Program-made: the position numbers and the translations under genes
Shown here: positions 28,007 through 64,000 of the stretch, one piece after another
How the letters are laid out: each line of letters starts with the position of its first letter
Numbering within the stretch: position 1 is the stretch's first letter
NCBI RefSeq assembly: GCF_035084215.1
Contig: NC_090337.1
Location: forward strand, 11,718,001 to 11,782,000
Reading direction: 5' to 3'
DNA: 64,000 bases
DNA from: Heptranchias perlo
Taxonomy: Eukaryota
The notes under the pieces: generated by a model
What the model was told of the DNA's origin: nothing
The model's database searches: none
Seen by the model: only the letters and a program-made list of their open reading frames with translations

Positions 28007-30215
28007 TAGGGTTGCCAAACCTCCCGGATTGTCCGGCAGTCTCCCGGAATCGAGGATTGATCCCCTGGGCGCTGCTGCTGGTGACCCGGGAGAAAATGCG
28101 GAAGTAGAGTTTGCGCGCGCGTGACAGCTTCAAGTTCAGGCGCCAAACCCTTCCTGCCTCCCCAGTGTCATGAACTCAGGAAAGGCTGTAGACAGCGGTG
28201 TCCAGCAGTTAACACTGGACAAAGTGCATGGGCGGCACCAGTGGGAGTGCCAAGTTTGTATCAAGTCCAAAACCGGACAAGAGGTGAAATGGATTCATAA
28301 CATATATGTTAAGCCACAAATAAATTTTAAATCAGAGCCACCTTCAAACTATATTTCTTAACAAAGATGTGTTGTACAAAAAGGATACAAAAAACACACA
28401 CATAACCATTGGACTGCACTACTCTATTTCATTGTCCAATTAAAGCAATTTTGATAAACCAGGAGTCTTCAAGTATTTGTTTAGCTTAAGCAAACTTCAT
28501 TTGAAATAAAATTTAATCAAAATGACACCACTGTATTTCAATAACTGTATAAATATCCATGATGTGGATACCCTAACCACGTCAAAGAGGCCATCCCCTA
28601 TGGACAGGCCCTGCGAATACACAGGGTCTGCTCAGACGAGGAGGAACGCGATGGACACCTACAGACGCTGAAAGACGCCCTCGTAAGAACGGGATATGAT
28701 GCTCGACTCATCGATCGACAGTTCCGACGGGCCACAGCAAAAAATCGCATAGACCTCCTCAGAAGACTAACACGGGACGCAACCAACAGAGTACCCTTCG
28801 TCGTCCATTACTTCCCCGGAGCGGAGAAACTACGCCATGTTCTCCGCAGCCTTCATCATGTCATCAATGACGACAAACACCTCGCTATGGCCATCCCCAC
28901 ACCTCCACTACTCGCCTTTAAACAGCCACCCAACCTCAAACAGACTATCGTTCACAGCAAATTACCCAGCTTTCAGGAGAACAGCGTCCACGACACCACA
29001 CAACCCTGCCACGGTAACCTCTGCAAGACATGCCAGATCATCGATACAGATACCACCATCACACGAGAGGACACCACCCACCAGGTGCATGGTTCATACT
29101 CCTGTGACTCGGCCAACGTTGTCTACCTCATACGTTGCAGGAAAGGATGCCCCAGAGCATGGTACATTGGCGAGACCATGCAGACACTGCGACAACGGAT
29201 GAACGGACACTGCGCAACAATCGCCAGACAGGAGGGTTCCCTCCCAGTCGGGGAACACTTCAGCAGTCAGGGACATGCAGTCAGGGACATTCAGCCACCG
29301 ACCTTCGGGTAAGCGTACTCCAAGGCGGCCTTCGAGACACACGACAACGCAAAATCGTCAAGCAGAAATTGATAGCCAAGTTCCGCACCCATGAGGACGG
29401 CCTCAACCGGGATCTTGGGTTCATGTCACGCTACACGTAAGCCCACCAGCGAACAAAAGCTATCTGTTTTTAATATAACGGGTCATTTGCTGGCTTTCTC
29501 TGCCTTCAAGATGTTTCTGCCTCTCTTTTTTTTTCCTGTTTGTTTTTTTTGTTGAATGTATATTCGGGGGTTCTGGAGGTAACACCTCTCTGTCTGAACA
29601 CGGTGATTGCCTTGGCAACGGGCAGTTGCAAAGGCTGTCTGTAAATCACCATGTATTGTTCTGTGATTTATAAATGCGTAGGCTTCGAGGAGTTCCTGAC
29701 ATTTACCTGAGGAAGGAGGAAGCCTCCAAAAGCTTGTAGATTTCAAATAAAATCGTTGGACTATAACTTGGTGTTGTAAAATTGTTTACAAATGTATAAA
29801 TATCAACATACAAAAATAAATCAAAGCACATAGGAGATAAAACTGGACAAATAATGATTTTTTTTTGCTAAGTAAACTGCTATGAAATCAAGTACAAGCT
29901 CAGATCCTCTGAATTTAAGTAAAATTCACTTGGACTGACGCAACTTAAGAACAAGCCCAAAAATGTGATGTGCCTTGCAAATCTTGCCTTTGCAATAGAT
30001 GAAATGGTTACAAAAAAAGAGTCCACTTTTACACAGAATGGGTATTCTTTAACTATACTTGTATTTTTTTCTAAAAATGCTGTTATGCGCAAAGACACTC
30101 AACTACAGGGACTCCAACCTTCATAAGGTAAATGCAAAACGTTTATAAACTGCAGGCAGATGTCAGACGCCACCGATCAAACGAGGAGTACATTCAACCA
30201 GAGTTGGCAACCCTT
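28007..30215. mobile_element. Related hAT-type element hosting the Penelope insertion
   Basis: TIRs tagggttgccaaac / gagttggcaaccct; the internal block actcaactacaggg..ccaacct..ggtaaatgcaa (about 30097-30137) is shared with 18032-18072. No clean TSD. Confidence 0.68.
28558..29792 (+). mobile_element. Penelope-like retroelement (Neptune-type), 5' truncated: RT thumb, Cys linker, GIY-YIG endonuclease, pLTR
   Basis: IPYGQALRIHRVCSD, FKQPPNLK, CHGNLCKTC, NVVYLIRC...WYIGET.QTLRQRMNGH. A 14-bp duplication (gcagtcagggacat, 29263-29290) shifts the frame. 12-bp TSD tgtataaatatc at 28546-28557 and 29793-29804. Confidence 0.93.
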
Positions 30216-37754: not shown

Positions 37755-38910
37755 AAATTAGTGTACGTTACTGGCAAGGAGGAAATGAAATAGTGCTGTT
37801 GGGGAAGGTTTAAACTAGAGTGGCAGGGGGATGGGAACCTGAGCGGGGAGTCAGAAGGGAATAAAGTTGAGAGCAGCAAGAGAGGGGAAGACCCAGGGGA
37901 AATCTACAATACAAATAGTACAAACAGTTGTTCAAGAACAAGTGAAAGGGAAAAGCATAGAGCAGCGGAAAGAAAGTGTACTTTAGGCACTTTAGGCAAG
38001 ACAGATAAAATGAAAACTAGAAGGCGTAAGGCGATTAACCCAGCATCAAAGCTGTGGCAGGGGGTTGGGAACCTGAGCAGGGAGACAGAGCAAAGCGTAT
38101 CAGGAAGGGACAGAAGGTATGGAGTAAAAGGTAAAGTGTTAAAAAAGGAAAAAGCAGGAATTAAGTGTCACAAAACATATTTGAAAGTTCTTTATCTGAA
38201 TGCACGTAGCATTCGTAACAAAATGGACGAGTTAACGGCACAAATAACGACGTATGGGTATGATCCTGTGGCCATTACAGAAACATGGCTGCAGAGTGAC
38301 AACGACTGGGAATTAAATATGCCAGGGTATTTAACAATCAGGAAGGACAGGCAGGAAGGAAGGGGAGGTGGGGTGGCTATGTTAATAAGGGAAGGAATCA
38401 CTGTAATACAGAGAAAAGATATTGGGACAAAGGATCAGGATAATGAAACAGTTTGGGTAGAGATAAGGAATAATAAGGGGAAAAAAACACTCGTGGGCGT
38501 AGTATATAGGCCTCCTAATAGTTGCAACTCTGCTGGAAGAAGTATTAATCAGGAAATAGTCGGGGCATGTAATAAGGGAACAGCTATAATTATGGGGGAT
38601 TTTAACTATCATATTAACTGGACAAATCAAATTGGGCAGGGTAGCCTTGAGGAAGAGTTTATTGAGTGTATTAGGGTTGGATTTCTTGAGCAGTATGTAA
38701 CTGAACCTACAAGGGGGCAAGCAACCTTGGACCTGGTCCTGTGTAATGAGCCAGGATTAATTAATAATGTCCTAGTTAAGGATCCCCTTGGAATGAGTGA
38801 CCATAACATGGTTACATTCCATATCCAATTAGAGGGTGAGAAGGTTGGTTCTCAAACAAGCGTACTGAGCTTGAATAAAGGAGACTATGATGGTATGAGA
38901 GCGGAATTGA
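37755..38910 (+). mobile_element. CR1 LINE fragment: ORF1 end plus ORF2 endonuclease domain, 3' truncated
   Basis: YLNARSI, ITETWL, YRPP, GDFNY, SDHN; shares the agtggcagggggatgggaacc junction motif with the 59874 copy. Confidence 0.9.
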
Positions 38911-39896
38911 GGATGTGAAAGGTGCCAAATAAATGCAAGTCTTTCTTTCTTGCTGCAACTGAGCTCAGCTGTTGTGCCATTTCCACATAGTTACCTTATT
39001 TATAGTCAGCTGCCTTTTGCTAACAACTGTGGTTTAACACCACAGTGGATAATTTACCAGAATTATAACTCAGGGGTTCTTTTCGAATCAAGCCCAGTGT
39101 TATATTTTTTTCATGGTTTGATGTCAAGAGCTGAGAGATTCTGAAAGCCTGAACTCTCCCCATCAAAATAAAATACAGACGACTATCTTCACATGCACTT
39201 GCCAAGAGAATGCAGAGCTGCAATCAATGCCGTGCCGAACAGGGTTGTTTTACTTTGGGCCGCTGCTTGCTCCTGAGCCGGTCAGCGGCAACATTGCTGC
39301 GCACTGCAGGTCAGAGAGAGAGACCAGAGCCAACATTCTCAGAAACTGAGCACGTTCTAGTTACTTGCAACTACAAGGACCACAAATCGATGGCTATTTT
39401 GGGGAAGATTAAAAAAAAGTTACTATGAAGACATTTCTGCGGAATTTGTAAGTCAGCCAGCACGGCTTTTATGAATATTATGGTGATTTGTAGCAAATGG
39501 TGGGGTCATGGGAAGGATATACCGTGAAAACTTTCTTCCATTAAAAGACATTTATACCCACTGTGGTGAAATTAGCTTAAGCATCATCACTATAATGAGA
39601 CTGTCTGTAGTCTTATGTCCCTTTTATACTACAGAGTTGCCTCCCTTGGCAAAAGACTCAGAGGCAACTCTTTCCTTTAAATAGCCCCCTTGCTCTTGCC
39701 ATTGGTGGCAATGAAGCTCGGTTGGAGCAAGGATTTCACCGCATGCCTCTAACCAAAAGTGCCAGAAACAGCAAATATAAACAACTTGTACCGGAAGAAT
39801 TTGGCTCTGGCTCACCAATTCAGGTCTGGCGATGGAAAGGATGAACTGTCAGCATGCCAACATAAAAGGACTTAGCTACCATTGCATTCTTTAAGC

Positions 39897-50219: not shown

Positions 50220-50534
50220 GCTAAAAACAGGAAATAGTAACTTCCTCAAAAATATTACTGCTGACTAACATTTCTGACATCAGCCAACGGTGACAGAAGT
50301 AACAACTGGCATCTGCTTGTTCATCTTCACAGTTACTCTACATATCACAAAATGAACGTAACGCCTTCAATGAAGGGCTTGGACCTACTTTCTTCTACTT
50401 AAGATACAGCTTCATCAGTTTTAGGTCGACTTACACATGTTGGAATTGTGCGCTGACATAAGATAGAGTTACTGAAAGGATCGGCTGGAAAGTTTTGTGG
50501 GAAGGACCAAGATCTGAAGGTGATCCAAGTAAGT
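50220..50534 (+). promoter_or_regulatory. Candidate 5' non-coding exon or promoter of the P2RY14-like gene
   Basis: Acceptor tttcttatcctacag ends 50219; ETS/PU.1-like AGGAA (50229) and ACTTCCTC (50240); donor CAA|gtaagt at 50529. Confidence 0.35.
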
Positions 50535-51133: not shown

Positions 51134-51967
51134 CTTTATGAAAAGACTTGGTGACATCAATTCGGATGTGAATACACAACAAAAACAAATTTCAAGGTCT
51201 GACAATTGAATTGCAGGATTATTCAAGCAGTAGAGAAAACAAGAGTTGCAGTTCCAGATAAGAGTTAAATCCAAAGAATGGGAGCGCATGAATGTGAAAA
51301 AACAAAAGATCGGTCTATGGATTCACTAGATTTCGTTTTGATGCTTAAAATATGGATGAACTCTATTCTGACGTATTTGAGCCCTGTTTGCCTGTAATTC
51401 TATATTGCATTAATCTTGGACCTTCCGGATTAAGGGGGTGGGTAGCCGAGGCACACATGCCAGGAGAGGAAAGGTTCAATCTCCAAATACTGGAACTCAT
51501 CTGATGCAACGGTGTAGATGCTATAACCGACCTCAGGACCTCTGGGCTGGGGTGGGGGAGAAGAGAGAAGCAGACAAGGTTGCCACTTCTGAGAATTGGG
51601 CGAGGTGCCAGAGAACATTTGGGAAAGAGTGGAGAAAACTGGCAGAAAAAAGCAGCAAAAAACAGGGTGATGGAAACAGCAGCCCGGTAATGCACCAATG
51701 CAGGCACCAATACGTGGAGGGACACAAGGTTTAACTCCAATTCCTCGAGGTCCCTAAGCTGGAGAAGACAGATAACCTCCCACAGAGAGGGTGCAAACAG
51801 CAACGACATGAGAAAAAATCCCAGTGGTGGAGAGCTGTTGGGAACCATAGGTCCAAAGACACCTTAGTTGACAAATTTTTCATATACTGTAACACAAAGT
51901 TATTTTCCGAAAAATCTTTCCAATTTCAACATGTTTTTTTCTTCCCTATTTGGAGAAAAGTACAGAA

Positions 51968-52737
51968 ATGAATACGAGCACAGATTCTCCCAACACCACC
52001 AACTGCAGAGACTTGCGCAATCCCACAGTGACAAAGGCGGTCCTTCCACTCTGAGCATAATATTCCTCGGCCTGATCAGTTTTGACAGGTATCTGAAAAT
52101 TGTACAGCCCAGTAAAAGACTCACTGTGCAAAAGGTCACATTTGCCAAGGTCATATGTGCGAGTTGCTGGGTCCTCATGACGGGCTTTGCGCTACCAAGC
52201 ATCATTTTGACAAACAAAATCCCAACAGAGAAAACTGCGGCACGGTGTCTGCAGTTGAAAAGTAAACTGGGTGTAACTTGGCACCATTTTATAGTTTTAA
52301 AATGCAAAGTTATTTTCTGGATCACTTTTGTGTTGCTCATTGTGTGTTATTCGGCCATCGTAAAAAAAATATATTGGTCCGACCAAAAATTCCAAAAGGA
52401 TTCCAGCAATGTGAAAAAGAAAGCTAATCGTAACATATTCAGCATCATAGCCGTCTTCATCATCTGCTTTGTGCCGTATCAATTCATCAGACTCCCGTAC
52501 GATAACAGCCGACTAGATAAGAGAAACTGTACAACATACAATATACTGCATTATGCAAAGGAGGCCACACTGCTACTGTGCGCATGTAACATTTGGCTTG
52601 ATCCAGTCCTCTACCTCCTGCTGTGCAAATCATTCACTAAGCTGCTATTTAAAAAGATGCAAGTGCAACGATACCTTGGTATAGAAATGTCTAAGGACAG
52701 ACACAAGAAATCACTGTCAAATGAGACGTGCACATAA
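51968..52737 (+). pseudogene. P2RY14: P2RY14-like GPCR disrupted by a frameshifting internal deletion (TM1 to mid-TM3 missing)
   Basis: ATG 51968 reads MNTSTDSPNTTNCRDLRNPTVTKAVLPL then TGA at 52052-52054. Another frame from 52051 reads LSIIFLGLISFDRY...LKSKLG..WH...IFWITFVLLIV.Y.AI.KKI...VKKKANRNIFSI...KEATLLL...LDPVLY, which is P2Y14-type. Confidence 0.8.
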
Positions 52738-52768
52738 TAATCCAGCTCCAACAAACCCAAATCGCAAC

Positions 52769-52887
52769 AAGCTGCTATTTAAAAATACGTGAGTACAAAG
52801 AAGCTTCATTGCAGATCTGTCTGAAGTGAGAAGCAAGAAATTGCTGCCAAATAACATGTCCAATTGATCTCCCAGCTCCAACAAACC
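52769..52887 (+). pseudogene. Diverged duplicate of the P2RY14-like C-terminal tail and proximal 3' UTR
   Basis: Ungapped 130-bp-period repeat of 52639-52757, 84/119 identical by hand count; reads KLLFKNT*VQRSFIADLSEVRSKKLLPNNMSN*. Confidence 0.8.
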
Positions 52888-53369
52888 ACTGGTCTCCAAG
52901 TTGCTTTTGATATAAAAACTCCCTCAACCAAATCATTAGCTTCTACTACAAATGCTAAGCCAACTATTTACTGCACCATACCTACATGCCTGCAGCAAAG
53001 TGTCATCACAACCTCCATCAAAAACCTCAACTTGGGTTGAAACAGTTGGCTTTCCGACATGAAAGTGTTGCGTACCTCTCTACCCATCCAGAAGGGTCAA
53101 TTTTCTTTCCCTTAAAGTGTTCTAGCAATAGCTTGTAGTTTACTTTCATGAATTTTCAACACCTGAACAGATGTCATGTGCTTTGTCATTCCTTCCCTGT
53201 TCTTTTTAAGAAAAAGAGATGAACATGAATGTGGATAAAAGTAATTTGGTCACGAAGTGTGAAAAACATAACCTTTAAATTGGCCACAGTACCACCTCCA
53301 GGTTGCTATGTAGTGCCGTTTGCAATTGTTTCATCTGCACACCTTCCATATTGTAAAGCTAAGTGGTAA

Positions 53370-53770
53370 GCCACTTAGCACTCTCACCCGAGTCAGACGA
53401 TTGTGGGTTCATGCTCCACTCCAGAGGCTTGAGCCCATAAACTGAGCTGACTCTTCAGTGCAGTCCTGAGGGAATGCTGCACTGTCGGAGGTGCCATCTT
53501 TCAGGGGAGATGTTAAACTGAGGCCCCATCTTCCATCTCTGCTGCACACAAGAGATCCCATGTCACTATCTGAAGAAGAGCAGTCGAGTTGCCCCGTGTG
53601 TCCTGCCCAATATTTATCCCTCATCCAATACCCTAAACAGATGATCTGGTCATTTAGCTCATGGCTCTTTATGGGACCATACTGTGCCCAAATTGGCTAT
53701 CACGTTACCCCACATTACAACAGTACTGAATTGGTTTTGAAGCACTTTGGAACAACCTGAGGTCGTGAAG
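53370..53770 (+). mobile_element. Deu-domain tRNA SINE
   Basis: gctgcactgtcggaggtgccatctttcag...gttaaactgaggcccc core. Confidence 0.75.
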
Positions 53771-55188
53771 TGGTCAGCTGGGTGGCAGATACAATTTAAT
53801 GCAGAAAAAAAAATGAAATAGTACCATTTAGGAAAAACCATGAAAGGAAATATAACTCAAAAGCCCTTAACAGAGTGGAACAGAGAGATCCAGGGACATA
53901 GAGCCAGGGTCCAGGGATATATAAAAGTTAAAGATATTGGTTAGGCCGCAGTTGGAGCACTGCATGCAATTTTAGGTGCCCAATTATAGGATGATCATTA
54001 GGGTTATAGAAAATATACAACAAAGATTCACTTACATTAAGATTCAAACAATTAGGGCTTTTATCATTGCAACAAAAGTTAAGGGGGCTGGGATCTTTCA
54101 CAAGTCTCAAGAGTATTCAGAAGGTAAATAGTGATAGATTATTTCTACCGTTTGCCAAATTGGTAACAAAGGGACTTAGACTCAGGAATTTCACGAGAAG
54201 AATGAAGGAGGAAGTTAGAAGAATTTTTTCACACAGGGTTATTAGAACACGCTTTATACAGTGGAAATTGAGGCAGAAACTCTTATTTGAAATTTTGGAT
54301 ACACTCAATAAGTCAGACAGCATTTGTCCAGGACACACAAGTTGATGTTCGGATCGTGAACCCTTCCTCTGTTCTGTCAGGTGCTGTCAGGAGCGGAGTG
54401 CTTTCTGGTTTTGTTTCAGTTTTCCAGCATCTGCAGTATTTTGCTTTCTGTTCATTATAAAACGTTCTTTATTTGCACAGCTCGGTGTCTACCACATGCG
54501 GAATCCCATCATCACATTTAAGAGTCTCCAACTCAGCTGGAGAAACCTACACCAATGGCAGAGTTTCTATTTCTGTGTCATGTGGAGTGCACACACATTC
54601 TCCATAGGAACACATTCCGCTTGGACAAGTGTTGAGCGCTTAGGTGCTCTTTGGTAGAGCTATGACATGGTTGGCCCCCCAAGTGTGCCAGAGTTATTTA
54701 AACTCCAGCAGTACCTAAGATCTTGTAGCTCAGAAGAACGGATTCCTGCTCAGCTTTACACTGATTATCAGGACTATCCTACTCGGCAGTGCTATCTGGA
54801 GCTCAGTAAGAAAAATGCCACGTCCCAACAGTTTTGTCCCTCCAGATTAGAAGAAGTGATCCAAACTATCATTTAAAAGAGCATTAGATCAGGATTTGAA
54901 AATAAAAAATATCAAAGTATATGGGTACAGGGCAGGGAAATGGGATTACACCAGACAGCTTCCATTCAAGAACCCCAGCGTGATGGGCTGAATTGCCTAC
55001 TCGTGGCAGTAATTTCTATGAATCTGGAGTAAATGACAAGCTTGCCAGATTAAATGAGCTTGAGCAGGAGACAGTCACTTGTTGTAAGCAACCAATTCTG
55101 AGTCCAACATTCACCGTGGAACATTAGCAAATTAATACAAGCACTGCAAAATGGGTTTACACTCGGCTCTATCTATCCACTTTATAAC

Positions 55189-55280
55189 TGTAAACAATTT
55201 TACAACACCAAGTTATAGTCCAGCAATTTTATTTTAAATTCACAAGCTTTCGGAGATTTCCTCCTTCCTCAGGCAAATGT
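55189..55280 (-). mobile_element. Penelope pLTR 3' fragment with a hammerhead core
   Basis: Reverse complement reads CTGAGGA-A-GGAGG-AAA-TCTCC-GAAA-GCTTGTG followed by the same tail as 29700-29790. Confidence 0.82.
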
Positions 55281-56379
55281 TTTAACTAACCAGGGCCAGT
55301 TTGCAGGCTCATGCTTAGTTTGACTCATTCACTTACTGTCTGATAATTCTATTGATTCCACTCTCAAAACGTTTCTTGGAAATATATAAGGAACATGCAA
55401 TTAATTATCCGTTGCTGCAAAAAGATATGCATTAATACACACTGCCTCTCGCTGCACAACCACAACTGGACTAAAGACAAAAACCCAAAGTGAAAATTAA
55501 TTTTGATTTTGTGACTTAATATAAAAACATTGTAAGGAAATGAAAATCTGATTGCATCTCTTCAACTCTGTGTAGCAGCCTGTGAAATGCGGAAACAGAA
55601 TAGATCAGTGAGTAAATGCACCACCCAGTGCTGTGTTCAGCTATACAGACCCAGAAGGTCGCAGATTCAACCCTTAAGTCTGTGTTGAATTAGCTGATCT
55701 TACCAAAGTAGTTACAATCCAGGGAAGAAAAAAAAATTAGTTAAGAATTCAGATCTCAGTTGCTGTCCAGTGGCCCCTGCTGGAAAACACAGGCAAGGAC
55801 AGGAATGCTCTGATGTGAGATCTCTCACAGTTGATCGAGGCGGTTAAGTCTCACAGTCTACGCTCACATGAAGGGGCCACTTGGGCCGAGTACCGAATGG
55901 CTGCTGGTGCACTTGGAACAAACCTTCAGGCTTCATTCAAATGTTCTCATATTTTTTTCCACAATATTTTGCTCCTATTCTGTAATTGGAAGGAGAGGCA
56001 GACTGTATACAAATTTTTTAAAAGTCAGTTTATGAGAAGTGTCGCACCTGATCATACTTTGCCATTCCAACTCGCGGCCTCCATTCTGGCTCATGATTTT
56101 GTGATTACATTTCAGTGCAAGTGGTCTTTACAGGCCACCAGGATCAATAACCACACCACTGGCCTGTATGGGTACAGTGAGAGCTCAGCGCACCCACAGC
56201 CAGACAAATACAGGTTGCTCACATGCTGTGCGTGCATTTCTAAATCTCATCACCACGTTGCAGATTGGTAGTCTCACCCATGGACACCTTCTCTCGGGTG
56301 ATATGAAGACCCAGGCCTTGCACCAGTGCACTTGTTTGCTTTGCCATGAAGCTAGACAGAAACTGACTATTTGCCCCCA

Positions 56380-57340
56380 ACCTCTCCCAAAACATATACC
56401 CTGCAAATCGATGAGTGGGATTGTGGAGTATCGACAGAATGCAAATCATTTGAAAAATGAAGAACATTCTGCAAAGCAGGTTAATCTACCTTTTTCATTT
56501 TACATTCTCGAAGCACACGAAGGGGATACGAAAGCAGTACAGTTTAGGAGAAGGAGACCTTGTGAAAGTGGTATTACACCAGCTGCCTGGATCAATCCAC
56601 TAAGGTTGTTGGCATATGCTGCAGTTGAGACAATTTAACTAGTCAGCAAATGTGGATTGCACTCTTGCATGTGCCATCAATAGACATCTGGCTGACAGAT
56701 TATCAAGAAGCAAGTGCAATGATGTTTAACTGGGGCCCGGGCAACCCTCCCTACAGATGGCAGCAGTACAAGATGGGCTCGACCAACCATCCAGCTGTCA
56801 ACCACGTGATTACCAGTTTAGCTTTTGTCTTTGCCTTTAAAGAAAATAAAGACAAACATATCAAAATGAGGGGCAAGAAAAGACCAGCTGGTCCATTAAG
56901 CCTGCCCCACATTATAACTGTCGACAATTTCCAAATTGCAGTACGAAAAGCGAAATATCATGAAGCTCTGCAAGAATCTACATAGTGACGATGGCGTTTC
57001 CGCTCAGTCTTGTATGGCAGTGAACAAGAGAAATGGGACAATTTCTTGACCCAAATCAACGTCAGGTAAAAACTATGAGCGAATCCACAGACTTGGACAG
57101 AATGCCAAATTAAATACAGCTGTTTGCAATTCACTAATTCTGCACGCCAAAACTAACGCTAACATTCCAATTTTCCAAGTAACAAATTTAAGCCACACAA
57201 AGAGATTCAAATGTGGGTACAATTTATGAAAAACTAAATTGGACAATTTCCAATTTGCTTGCATAAAATTGAACACCAAATGCTCCGGCAACCTGTTGAG
57301 ACCAGTCCCCTGCAGGTGGGAACCATATATTGTCACAGAT
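56380..57340 (-). mobile_element. Decayed DIRS-type tyrosine-recombinase retrotransposon relic
   Basis: Minus-strand peptides WKLSNLVFHKL..LKFVTWKIGMLALVLACRISELQ, FLP, TAGWLVEPILYC and SIDGTCKSA are in the order of DIRS YR motifs as I recall them; many stops and frameshifts. Confidence 0.6.
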
Positions 57341-58729
57341 GTAACTATTACCGGTGTTTTTTGCGGGATAACCTCTTGAAGAAGCTCTCCCGCACAACGT
57401 TGTCACCATGGGAGATCTCCACAGTGCTGAAGCATTAAAAGGGTGATCGAGGGGCAAAGGGAAACCTGGGGAAAAAGCACAGCTGCAGAGGCAAAACATA
57501 ACAGTACGAAATTCCATCAGTACTTCAACATTAAAAGTTCGGTCAGAGAAAAGGTGAGAACCACGAAAGACAAAAAACAGGTTTGAAACAGAGGATGACC
57601 ACAAGATAATGAATATTCTGAATAATTACTTTCTCAGTTATTCACAAGAGACAACATGAGCAATATGCCCTCAGAGATAACCAAAATGACGCCCGAATTT
57701 CATCAATCTTTTGCACTGGTTCTCCAAAATCTCCAGTGGAATCCTCTGCCACTCATTAACATAGCTCCACCCTCCAAGCAAAAGTGCAGATCGTGCAAAT
57801 TTCCTCAATTTATAACAGTTCTGAATGGGCTGTAAATCTACGCCTAAAATCTTAGCCGCAAAACAACACGTCATATTTCTGGTGTTTTATGACGTTACTT
57901 TCAGCAATTTTTTCAAATTTCTCCTCACGGAGACCGAAATGTATTTTCTCTATCTTTGGATGCACCATCATGGCATCAGAATTGTTTGCATTAAAAATCT
58001 TATGAAACATTCGGTGCCTAATGTGCATAAATGATGATTTGCTTGATTCAAACTTTAATTTTCATCAGGTACTTGAAGAAGGAATATGTTGTAAGTTTCA
58101 GGTGACTCTTTACGCTGATTTCCACTTGTTTTACACCAGTTTTTACATTCCAGTTCATAATAATCAAAATCTCAGGAAATTTCAGCACAATTCACCGACA
58201 AGATGATTGGTGGAAATTTCAGTGTAACTTACCAGTTACGCTGTTTCAGGAAATTCCGGGCCAAAGTGAGAATTAGCCTATCAATAGTAATCTAGTAAAC
58301 AGCAGTCATCGTGGATTCAGAAGGGGAAGTTCTTCTCTAACCAACCTGCTTAACTTGTTTGAGGAAGCAACAACCCAAATTTCTTCATGTGCTAGCCCTG
58401 GATTTGTCTTGTGCCTCTTTTTTAAAAAAATCTCATTTTAATTGTTTTTTCTCAACTCATTCAAGTAATTCCAGTTTTCATTTGATCACCATTTCTTCGT
58501 GGGCATATGTCTAGTCTTAACACAAATCATCTCTTGTTTGAACATTTCCCATTATTTATCCACTGGCTCATCTGCCCATTTTTCTTCCCAATAACTTTTT
58601 GAAGTGAAGAGGATCCTAACTTTACTTAATATAGTGTGCCGATCCAATCAATGCCATACATAGAGTTAATGTGATCCCTCTGAAACACTAAGCAGAAACA
58701 AACTACTTATGTTCTTATGATTGTCATAT

Positions 58730-59030
58730 TGATCATAAGAAATAGGCCATATGACCCCTCGAGCCTGCTCCGCAATTCAATAAGATCATGGCTGATCTTT
58801 GGCCTCAGCTCCACTTTCCCACTCGATCCTCATATCTCTTGATTACCTTAGAGTCCAAAAATCTATTGATCTCAGCCTACTCAATGACTGAGCATCCACA
58901 GGCCTCTGGAGGAGAGAATTCCAAAGATTCACAACCCTCTGAGAGTGAAGAAATTCCTCCTGATCTCAGTCCTAAATCACCGACCCCTTATCCTGAGTCT
59001 ATGCACCCTAGTTCGAGATTCTCCAGCTCC
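58730..59030 (-). mobile_element. CR1 LINE 3' end
   Basis: gagcctgctccgcaattcaataagatcatggctgatc tail, as in the 25685 copy. Confidence 0.8.
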
Positions 59031-59873
59031 AGAATCTGTGTTTCAATAAATACTGGGTTTCGAATTTACTTAGAAACATAAACGTGCAGAAATAGGAACA
59101 AAAAAAACAAGATAAAACCACAGACTAGTCTGGTGGGTTAACACATTTCGCCTACATTTTTGATCTTAGAATGTCCCCAACATCTGCACTTTCACTTCTT
59201 CGATCTGGGTTCAACTCAATCCGAGATTGATGGTATCAAAATTTCCCACTCTCTTTAAGCTGTCAGGATCCCATGTGACATGTTTGTAAGAGCCTCAGTC
59301 CAAAGTTCGTGAGAAAATTTATCTGCACCGAGAGCTGGTCATCAATAGTAGATTGTAATTACTATTTCTTGTCTTTCCACTATGATATCTATCTATCCTT
59401 TTGACAGCTTTCATATTGTCCTTTACCAACAAGGCTACTTCCTACACCAAGCCTCATGGGTCCATCTTTCAGAAACAATCTACATTGTCTAAATCAATGA
59501 ATCAAATCATTTTTCCTTGTTTCAATTTCTTTTTTTTTTACACACACACAAGGTGAGGGCAAGACTCCCTTTTTTAAAGTATGTCTTTTCCCCTTCATCA
59601 TTCTTGAGTGTTCCCATCGCTAGACAGGCGGGCTGCTACTCGGCCTCAGTCTGTCAATGAAACTTGCCACTAAGAGGAAGTTCACAAAAAGGAATTTTGA
59701 GGTAACTCTTCCTTAGATTTTATCCCTTGGAAGATCCTCAAACTTTAATTAGTAGCACCCACCACAGCAGGGCTGAGATCGTTAACTCTTTAATGGCTCC
59801 TCATAAGTACAAACCTAAACTCTATGGGGCTCATTTTCACCTTCAGAAAACCAGTGAAGCAGATCACCAGCCT

Positions 59874-62800
59874 AAAGTGGCAGGGGGATGGGAACCGATG
59901 CAGGAAGTCAGTGGGAAGTAAAGTGGTGACAGAAACAAAAGGCAATAAGGGAGAGTGTACAAAACATGACCGGACAGATGGTCTGAGAAAGCAGGGCAAA
60001 GACCAAGGGAAGTCTAGATTAAATTGCATTTACTTCAGTGCAAGAAGTCTGATGGGCAAGGTAGATGAACTCAGGGCATGGATGGGTACATGGGACTGGG
60101 ATGTTATAGCTATTACTGAAACATGGCTAAGGGAGGGGCAGGACTGGCAGCTAAATGTTCCAGGGTACAGATGCTATAGGAAAGATAGAGCAGGAGGTAA
60201 GAGAGAAGGGGGAGTTGCGTTCTTGATTAGGGAGAACATCACGGCAGTAGTGAGAGGGGATATATTCGAGGGTTCGCCCACAGAGTCTATATGGGTAGAA
60301 CTGAAAAATAAGAAGGGAGAGATCACCTTGATAGGATTGTACGACAGACCCCCAAATAGTCAACGGGAAATTGAGGAGCAAATATGTAAGGAGATTACAG
60401 ACAGCTGCAATAAAAATAGGGTGGTAATAGTAGGGGACTTTAACTTTCCCAACATTGACTGGGACAGCCATAGCATTAGGGGCTTGGATGGAGAGACATT
60501 TGTTGAGTGTATTCAGGAGGAATTTCTCATTCAGTATGTGGATGGCCCGACGAGAGAGGGGGCAAAACTTGACCTCCTCTTGGGAAATAAGGAAGGGCAG
60601 GTGACAGAAGTGTTAGTGAGGGATCACTTTGGGACCAGTGATCATAATTCCATTAGTTTTAAGATAGCTATGGAGAATGATAGGTCTGGCCCAAAAGTTA
60701 AAATTCTAAAGTGGGAAAAGGCCAATTTTAATGGTATAAGACAGGAACTTGCAGAAGTTGATTGGGAGAGTCTGTTGGCAGGCAAAGGGACATCTGGTAA
60801 GTGGGAGGCCTTCAAAAGTGTGTTAACCAGGGTTCAGGGTAAGTACATTCCTTATAAAGTGAAGGGCAAGGCTGGTAGAAGTAGGGAACCTTGGATGACT
60901 CGGGAGATTGAGGCCCGAGTCAAAAAGAAGGAGGCATATGACATGCATAGACAGCTGGGTAGAAGTGGATCCCTTGAAGAGTATAGAGATTGCCGGAGTA
61001 GAGTTAAGAGAGAAATCAGGAGGGCAAAAAGGGGACATGAGATTGCTTTGGCAGATAAGGCAAAGGAGAATCCAAAGTGCTTCTACAAATACATAAGGGG
61101 CAAAAGAGTAACTAGGGAGAGAGTAGGGCCTCTTAAGCATCAACAAGGTCATCTTGTGGCGGAACCACAAGAGATGGGCGAGATCCTAAATGAATATTTT
61201 GCATCGGTATTTATGGTTGAGAAAGGTATGGATGTTAGGGAACTTGGGGAAATAAATAGTGATGTCTTGAGGAGTGTACATATTACAGAGAGGGAGGTGC
61301 TGGAAGTCTTAACGCGCATCAAGGTAGATAAATCTCCGGGACCTGATGAAATGTATCCCAGGACGTTATGGGAGGTTAGGGAGGAAATTGCGGGTCCCCT
61401 AGCAGAGATATTTGAATCATCCACCGCTACAGGTGAGGTGCCTGAAGATTGGAGGGTAGCAAATGTTGTGCCTTTGTTTAAGAAGGGCGGCAGGGAAAAG
61501 CCTGGGAACTACAGACCGGTGAGCCTGACAACTGTAGTGGGTAAGTTGTTAGAGGGTATTCTGAGAGACAGGATATGCGGGCATTTGGAGAGGCGGGGAC
61601 TGATTAGGAACAGTCAGCATGGTTTTGGGAGAGGAAATGTCTCACAAATTTGATTGAGTTTTTTGAAGGGGTAACCAAGAAGATAGATGAGGGCTGTGCA
61701 GTAGACGTGGTCTACATGGACTTTAGCAAAGCCTTTGACAAGGTACCGCATGGTAGGTTGTTACATAAGGTTAGATCTCACGGGATCCAAGGTGAGGTAG
61801 CCAATTGGAAACAAAATTGGATTGACGGCAGAAGACAGAGGGTGGTTGTAGAGGGTTGTTTTTCAAACTGGAGGCCTGTGACCAGCGGTGTGCCTCAGGG
61901 ATCGGTGCTGGGTCCGCTGTTATTTGTTATTTATATTAATGATTTGGATGAGAATTTAGGAGGCATGGTTAGTAAGTTTGCAGATGACACCAAGATTGGT
62001 GGCATTGTGGACAGTGAAAAAGGTTATCTCGGATTGCAACGGGATCTTGATAAATTGGGCCAGTGGGCCGATGAATGGCAGATGAAGTTTAATTTAGATA
62101 AATGTGAGGTGATGCATTTTGGTAGATCGAATCGGGCCAGGACCTACTCCGTTAATGGTAGGACGTTGGGGAGAGTTATAGAACAAAGAGATCTAGGAGT
62201 ACAGGTTCATAGCTCCTTGAAAGTGGAGTTACAGGTGGATCGGGTGGTGAAGAAGGCATTCAGCATGCTTGGTTTCATTGGTCAGAACATTGAATACAGG
62301 AGTTGGGATGTCTTGTTGAAGTTGTACAAGACATTAGTTAGGCCACACTTGGAATACTGTGCACAGTTCTGGTCACCTTATTATAGAAAGGATATTATTA
62401 AACTAGAAAGAGTGCAGAAAAGATTTACTAGGATGCAACCGGGACTTGATGGTTTGACTTATAGGGCGAGGGTGGATAGACTGAGACTTTTTTCCATGGA
62501 GAGTAGGAGGTTGAGGGGTGATCTTATAGAAGTCTATAAAATAATGAGGGGCATAGATAAGGTAGATCGTCAAAATCTTTTCCCAAAGGTCGGGGAGTCT
62601 ATGACGAGGGGACATAGATTTAAGGTGAGAGGGGAGAGATACAAAAGGGTCCAGAGAGGCAATTTTTTCACTCAAAGGGTGGTGAGTGTCTGGAACGAGC
62701 TGCCAGATGCAGTAGTAGAGGCGGGTACAATTTTGTCTTTTAAAAAGCATTTGGACAGTTACATGGGTAAGATGGGTATAGAGGGATATGGGCCAAATGC

Positions 62801-62895
62801 AGGCAACTGGGAATAGCTTAGTGGTATAAACTGGGCGACATGGACATGTTGGGCCGAAGGGCTTGTTTCCATGTTGTAAACTTCTATGACTCTAT
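59874..62895 (+). mobile_element. CR1 LINE, near-complete ORF2 (APE endonuclease + RT) with 3' tail
   Basis: ITETWL, GDFNFP, SDHN, PGPD, NYRPVSLT, DFSKAFDKVPH, GVPQGSVLGP, FADD. One frameshift near 61630-61650; ttctatgactcta tail. Confidence 0.95.
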
Positions 62896-64000
62896 TATAG
62901 AACCCACTGGATTTTCCAATCCAATGGAAACGAAAATCTGGCAGATTCTATAATGGGCGAGCGATCCACTCAACAGTTCACAGCCCAAGCGGTGAAGGTG
63001 AAAATTACCCCTTATGTCGCCATGGCTCAGTTCATTGGTGCTCCAAGGTGTCAGCCATAGCTCAGTGGGAGCACTCTCGCCTCTGAGTAAGACCCACTCC
63101 ACAGAACGGGGAACTGAGTAGTTCTGTATCAAACTACGACTCCTTTGAATTTTTATTTAATCCTTGTAGTAAATAACCTCTGCTTAACTCCTCTCCTCCC
63201 CAATCTATCCCCACCCTATAAATCAGCCAGAATAATCAGGAACTCACAAAGTAAGAATGGGGCAGGTAAATTCACATTCTATCAGAGTATTAATGCACCA
63301 TAGAACTGCCTGTTGGACTCCTGGAGGATTGAAAATGCTAACATTTTGAGGACTATGACACATTTACAAAAATTCCATTTGACCAGAAGATACTGTTCAA
63401 TTGTTCTTCAAAAAAAACTCCTCAAACCCTTTCTTTGATGAAAAAGAATTACAGAATGCAGATGTTGCAAAAATTCTATCATAGACATATCATTGAAGTT
63501 CCATTGGAAGTTTCACACTTCCACAGCCCACTGTCTTACTCAGGCTCCATCCTTGACGCCTGCTCTTTTATCTTAGTCCAAAGAAAACATTGGCAAAGGG
63601 CCCAAGAGTTACACTTTATTGGGGGACACGAAACATCATTGCCACAGCTCCAGTTTGGCTAAAACACCAATGCAGTAGACTTTCAACTTGCTGACTGGGT
63701 GTTGCGAATTGGTTGCCTGTTGAAGTGCCCTATCTAAAGATTTAAAATAATAAAGGAAGTAGTAACTTCCTGAAAAGTGCTTCAGCTGAGTAACAGCAAC
63801 CCAAAGTAATACACAAGTTTGATACAGTTGTCACTTATCATCTGCTTACACATTTTCAGTTACTCCACACACCAGCAAATGGCATCAGACTGTGCAGCGA
63901 ACTTGCTTCCTTTTATTTAAACTTCAACTCCACCAGCTTTGGATCAACCTGGAGTTAGAGTTGTGTGCTGACAGAATTATCAAAAGGATCATTATCTGGA

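Follow-up and report, generated by a model that had tools for sequence, protein, structure and literature searches.

P2RY14 of vertebrates encodes a UDP-sugar receptor of the P2Y12-like subfamily. In humans the gene lies in a P2RY12-P2RY13-GPR87-P2RY14-GPR171 cluster opposite MED12L. Birth-and-death with gene conversion is a textbook mode of evolution for tandem receptor arrays. Concerning ligand recognition, the residues K2.60, D2.64, K7.35 and E7.36 (KDKE) together with R6.55 have been tied to UDP-sugars, KDKE being common to P2Y12 and P2Y13 as well (PMC10642967). KDKE is thus not diagnostic of P2RY14 alone. The main text of the same article does not mention sharks (PMC10642967), and a literature search covering listings and abstract openings brought up nothing on the duplication or conversion of P2RY14 in sharks.

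Here we examined a P2RY14-like gene of the shark Heptranchias perlo in a stretch of 64,000 nucleotides (contig NC_090337.1, positions 11,718,001 to 11,782,000; hereafter the window). The earlier note on this DNA had proposed that a P2RY14-like receptor was knocked out by a frameshifting deletion, and that this represented a lineage-specific receptor loss. The knocked-out copy was borne out, but not the receptor loss, as two intact copies are located 16.8 and 33.0 kb downstream, beyond the window end. Taken as a whole, we consider it very probable that the gene is copy 1 of three tandem P2RY14-like genes (Table 1), and that it carries a real 238-bp break, likely tolerated because two intact copies adjoin, with the history proposed below. 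The shark differs from the vertebrate system in having three tandem copies rather than one, and in that copy 1 is without TM1-2.

Table 1. Features of copy 1 (window positions) and positions of the two intact copies
Feature	Position	Strand	Remarks
Copy-1 5' exon	50388..50528	+	Diverged paralog of the copy-2/3 5' exon; putative start; intact donor GT at 50529
Pyrimidine tract and acceptor region	51931..51955	+	Spliced copy-2/3 contigs join at 51954
Original start and short frame	51968..52054	+	ATG 51968, 28 codons; TGA 52052-52054 made by the frameshift
Deletion junction	52050..52053	+	238 bp gone; 2-nt microhomology
Remaining receptor core	52051..52660	+	Nearly identical to copy 2; likely gene-conversion tract
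C-terminal tail and stop	52661..52737	+	Type as in copies 2 and 3; 8/77 sites differ from copy 2
Duplicated unit (~16-17 kb), first part	52738..64000	+	Runs past the window end to both intact copies
Fossil second C-terminus	52769..52887	+	Diverged tandem counterpart of 52639-52757; 84/119 identical
Copy 2 (L002)	G000:C13:11786556-11787563		Open frame, 335 aa
Copy 3 (L003)	G000:C13:11802711-11803718		Open frame, 335 aa

The structure of the lesion agreed with what had been described. Translation from the original ATG runs into the TGA at 52052, and the TM3-TM7 remainder follows in a different frame that is open to the TAA at 52735-52737. The loss, put at about 238 bp (79 codons plus 1 nt), was found to be a single alignment gap of exactly 238 columns after 52050 when copy 1 was compared with both intact paralogs, and the microhomology that had been suggested as worth looking for amounts to 2 nt relative to these paralogs. 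The deletion removes residues ~29-108 (copy-2 numbering), that is, TM1, TM2 and the start of TM3, and with them K2.60, D2.64 and the TM3 cysteine. TM2 being deleted, copy 1 retains only the ligand residues of TM6 and TM7, and it does not contain the seven TM helices in one frame that define a functional class A GPCR. Genome-wide, the 238-bp block was located only twice, once in copy 2 and once in copy 3, and a search beyond these copies found no relocated block. In copy 2 the lost block starts and ends with an identical 7-mer, a property of 31 of the 165,090 deletions of 100-400 nt in the copy-2 coding sequence, bearing in mind that the pair was spotted post hoc, that copy 3 deviates at one letter and that copy 2 stands in here for the pre-deletion copy 1. 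The pair hints at a slippage step with a further short loss after it, or at mis-primed repair.

Near-identical tandem copies are prone to misassembly, and an assembly error had been suggested. A 58-nt contig of junction-only words (52023-52080) with zero mismatches was present in DNA runs X3 and X4, which are from one sample, that is, one individual and possibly the assembled animal. Its length is that expected by arithmetic for 28 junction-only 31-mers given the 2-nt microhomology; with 28-30 letters on each side, the contig is below the bridging rule of 31 letters a side. The depth of the region shared by all three copies (30.7 in X3 and 23.3 in X4) was about three times that of copy-specific contigs (9.2-13.2 and 6.3-8.4, respectively). 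The junction piece was not among the contig pieces listed for runs X1 and X2. With junction-only 31-mers in read-derived contigs of two runs and threefold depth in the shared core, an assembly or consensus error in the array is scarcely credible; the deletion is real.

The deletion could also be a segregating allele, with an unbroken copy 1 on the second haplotype or in further individuals. Only 3 changes are specific to copy 1, so that its present sequence is young, and one individual was sampled. Against this, the junction contig had a depth of 14.4 in X3 and 7.1 in X4, close to the 13.2 and 8.39 of the copy-1-only contig upstream and not half of it, and the sampled animal is thus probably homozygous. 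The assembly holds no fourth copy, and the canonical acceptor AG of copy 1 is also altered. We regard a segregating allele as improbable but worth keeping in mind; it is compatible with the tolerated break of a tandem copy and would change only the stage at which we observe it.

When the 228-residue remainder of copy 1 was searched against its own genome, two more matches were found on the same contig (96% and 90% amino acid identity), followed by matches of only 42-43%. Genome searches with both the remainder and the missing block turned up no fourth copy. Copy 2 has an identical database row, which bears the name "P2Y purinoceptor 14-like" and is from Heptranchias perlo. In a phylogenetic tree, the three copies grouped with tetrapod P2Y14 and not with P2Y12, P2Y13, GPR87-like or GPR171-like proteins (a 15-row clade with moderate support, 80/96, in a tree that has no verified GPR87 or P2Y12 reference from another species). 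Among solved structures, P2Y14 was the best match of the copy-1 remainder, and copy 2 scored 328 bits with P2Y14, higher than with P2Y13 (302) or P2Y12 (272). K2.60, D2.64, K7.35, E7.36 and R6.55 are all kept in copies 2 and 3. As for position, the local gene order and exons of a MED12-family gene (Med12-LCEWAV, minus strand, C13:11.888-11.955 Mb) agree with the human locus; the gene at 12075 is P2RY13-like, as had been noted, and L004 and L006 would be P2RY12, L005 (at 45287) putatively GPR87 and L009 GPR171. The tree, best structural match, motif and position indicate that the three genes are likely co-orthologs of P2RY14, alike to the vertebrate receptor in each of these respects. Two other database proteins, P0099 and P0072, bear the names GPR87 and GPR171 and yet group with mammal and bird P2Y14; they have likely been misnamed through the shared locus.

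Two motifs of the remainder, PYQ in TM6 and NIWLDP in TM7, had been put forward as possible signs that selection had already relaxed. Both are present as described, and both set shark copies apart from vertebrate P2RY14 (copies 1 and 2 have Gln at 6.52, and all three have the Trp of NxWLDP). However, NIWLDP is found in both intact copies (2/2) and PYQ in copy 2, and Gln 6.52 is common in elasmobranchs, occurring in 24 of 38 other elasmobranch proteins (20 rows from other species and 18 cluster members, 9 clusters having been looked up). The two motifs were accordingly rejected as marks of relaxed selection. The Trp was present in 3/3 local copies and in 0/38 of the same proteins, all 38 of which have NxCLDP, pointing to a derived change shared across old loci.

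This unusual NxWLDP in all three copies, and the removal of K2.60, D2.64 and the TM3 cysteine by a deletion that is real, are what can be said for the view that this lineage has lost its P2Y14 UDP-sugar receptor. The earlier note had allowed that an intact P2RY14 elsewhere in the cluster would remove the gene-loss reading. Two such copies exist, with their ligand residues kept and with spliced contigs, and receptor loss is thereby refuted at the level of the gene and has next to no probability. What we observe is the ordinary loss of a likely redundant duplicate. Copy 1 carries a disabling lesion, has intact paralogs and retains its intron/exon structure; it would thus be a duplicated (unprocessed) pseudogene and, as intact counterparts are present in the genome, is not a unitary one. 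Its intron and 5' exon, tandem site, single lesion and patchy identity to its neighbours are those of duplicated pseudogenes arising under birth-and-death with ectopic conversion. It departs from this textbook model in that the broken shark locus is likely the older positional paralog and not the newest duplicate.

We then consider the 5' exon and the protein predicted from copy 1. In runs X5, X6 and X7, contigs break off at 51954, and their loose ends match an exon further upstream that has GT directly after it. This exon is located ~4.5 kb upstream of copy 2, where it ends 33 bases beyond the window end, and 5.4 kb upstream of copy 3. The spliced contigs carry copy-2 or copy-3 letters and intact sequence. 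Taking into account that the RNA status of these runs is the guess of a tool, backed by the splice junction, it is likely that the intact copies, at least, undergo transcription and splicing. No RNA data set is listed for copy 1. Neither the junction nor the copy-1 exon was found among the listed contigs of X5, X6 and X7, presence-only data that give no sign of silence. In run X9 (organism B), a single contig of the intact type showed the copy-3 letters at 52106, 52199 and 52218; it is uninformative on copy 1 of that organism. The 5' exon region of copy 1 is identical to that of copy 3 at 182 of 245 sites (74%). Near these exons we also observed a short high-copy repeat fragment in the copy-1 intron (51815-51865; summed depth in thousands) and, just upstream of the copy-3 5' exon, an inverted partial copy of that exon region (L017:4397-4630, minus strand; 234 bp, 98%).

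A database protein of 268 aa, P0122, matches an open frame of 268 codons from ATG 51931, raising the possibility that copy 1 produces a truncated receptor of about five helices, perhaps modulating the intact ones. The ATG has an A at -3, and the donor of the copy-1 5' exon is kept. However, this ATG falls in the pyrimidine tract of what is intron in copies 2 and 3, and the first 40 residues correspond to the acceptor region and an out-of-frame reading of the normal N-terminus. The acceptor AG of copies 2 and 3 reads GG in copy 1, where a further AG follows after 2 nt. A transcript joined from the copy-1 exon to 51956 would gain no in-frame ATG for the 3' ORF, the next in-frame Met being at 52177. 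A truncated receptor is thus very unlikely, and the P0122 model has likely arisen artefactually from the frameshift.

The distribution of differences among the copies was uneven. In the exon, the comparison of copies 1 and 2 gave differences at 3/97 sites before the junction, 1/610 after it (52051-52660) and 8/77 in the tail, whereas in the spacers 349 of the 11,224 sites aligned are different. The segments before and after the junction differ with a Fisher P of 0.009 and the core and tail with a Fisher P of 1.5e-7, and the core falls below the 3.1% background of the flanking unit with a binomial P of 9e-8; as spacer divergence is itself uneven (0-8.7% per 500 bp), the binomial value overstates certainty, and with tract limits picked after seeing the sites, the P values are indicative. 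Gene conversion characteristically leaves a stretch that is much more similar between copies than the sequence around it, and 52051-52660 is likely a recent conversion tract with copy 2, although part of the core identity could be explained by purifying selection until recently. The changes specific to copy 1 number only 3 in 52051-52737, all in the tail and none in 52051-52660. This makes dN/dS on the remainder unusable, and with a chance of 0.87 that 3 changes introduce no new stop, the clean frame says nothing about function. The cleanness had been taken as a sign that the loss was recent, polymorphic or an assembly error. With the remainder likely homogenised with copy 2, it is weak evidence of recency and cannot date the loss; the deletion would be no older than the exchange between copies 1 and 2, or would lie at the edge of that exchange.

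Copy 2 resembles copy 3 upstream (1027/1064 sites) and copy 1 downstream (52051-54953 at 95%). Together with the similar spacers, this is the pattern expected from unequal crossing-over. The coding parts of copies 1 and 3 are 95% identical over 52051-52757, and the close match stops at 52757, the 3' flanks agreeing at 138/166 sites (83%). After the stop, copies 1 and 2 possess a second, diverged tail that is absent in copy 3. This fossil tail scored 70 with a paralog of Pristiophorus (b) and 52 with Heterodontus, compared with 30 for the present tail of the locus and 43 for that of copy 2, and none of 500 shuffles reached either score; the tie of copy 1 to the b-type paralog of other species is based on short tail peptides. 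Judging from these comparisons, copy 1 is probably an old paralog in which sequence from copy 3 has replaced the coding exon, by way of a tract that ended out of register.

We propose the following order of events. The loci that are now copies 1 and 3 would have arisen by an old duplication, followed by drift of their 5' exons and 3' flanks to 74-83% identity. A conversion of copy-3 type may then have overwritten the copy-1 coding exon through its stop, leaving the older tail as the fossil. Unequal crossing-over between the matched coding exons would have doubled the 16-17 kb spacer and produced a chimeric copy 2, and later conversion may have homogenised the cores of copies 1 and 2. Finally, a deletion, presumably guided by microhomology, would have removed TM1, TM2 and the start of TM3 from copy 1, leaving only the 28-residue peptide. 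The array as a whole is one of birth-and-death with concerted evolution.

Other members of the cluster have been duplicated as well. L004 and L006, which precede the window start by ~0.7 kb and 30 kb, are intact, nearly identical P2RY12-like genes that arose by tandem duplication of ~23-33 kb. Between the GPR171-like gene and the P2RY14 copies, L008 and L010 (G000:C13:11.82-11.85 Mb) form a further receptor lineage, whose long branch in the tree falls outside the named subtypes. L013 (G000:C13:11837205-11840642) is a second broken duplicate when compared with L008: it is frameshifted by 2 bp after TM6 and has lost 6 bp and, with them, the ECL2 cysteine, and is nearly identical to L008 in its coding part and upstream, but unlike it after the tail. 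With a second frameshifted duplicate and a duplicated P2RY12-like gene in the cluster, the event in copy 1 is ordinary for this locus. Within the window, the intergenic ORFs at 28563-29312, 37794-38918 and 59794-62816 presumably are retrotransposon fragments (endonuclease, reverse-transcriptase-like), as judged by resemblance.

The closest counterparts of the array are the P2Y14-like sets of other elasmobranchs (Stegostoma, Rhincodon, Chiloscyllium, Pristiophorus, rays and skates), several of which have near-identical cores and distinct termini. At least 2 distinct P2Y14-like proteins, some of which may be alleles, were present in 12 of the 20 other species of our set. In the Stegostoma pair, core segments are identical at 75/75, 65/65, 49/50 and 39/40 residues and the termini at only 17/25 and 8/21, and each terminus matches a Rhincodon paralog (tail 20/21 and 25/29). 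Carpet-shark paralogs split by terminus type in the termini tree, where the two within-species pairs tested were rejected; in the core tree, the four proteins with a-type termini were rejected as a clade (p-AU 0.0007). Since the termini supplied the group names, the core test is the only independent one, and these protein-level results cover 15 of 45 aligned rows, with a termini tree of 54 columns that carries a long-branch warning. There are exceptions: Cetorhinus has two proteins whose cores are well diverged, and Hypanus c falls together with Hemitrygon c (33 of 45 rows in the tree). Heptranchias differs from the other sets in that conversion likely ran through the tail and stop, and in that one copy is broken. 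Considering that the conversion tract starts at the junction, that the 7-mer bounds the lost block and that a fossil tail is present, one tentative possibility, which we think rather doubtful, is that conversion has repeatedly homogenised the receptor core in an old shark and ray P2RY14 array, with the promoters and tails remaining specific to each paralog, that a mis-primed conversion from copy 2 excised the 238 bp, and that the fossil tail is an earlier misaligned overwrite.

By itself, a broken spare copy carries little weight. As a practical point for users, the 268-aa database protein for copy 1 is likely an artefact. More generally, the age of a gene loss within a tandem array cannot be read from an undamaged remainder, since the latter is reset by conversion. 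The P2RY14 paralogs of sharks and rays, homogenised in their cores and distinct in their termini, may be of interest for the evolution of purinergic receptors or of shark immunity.
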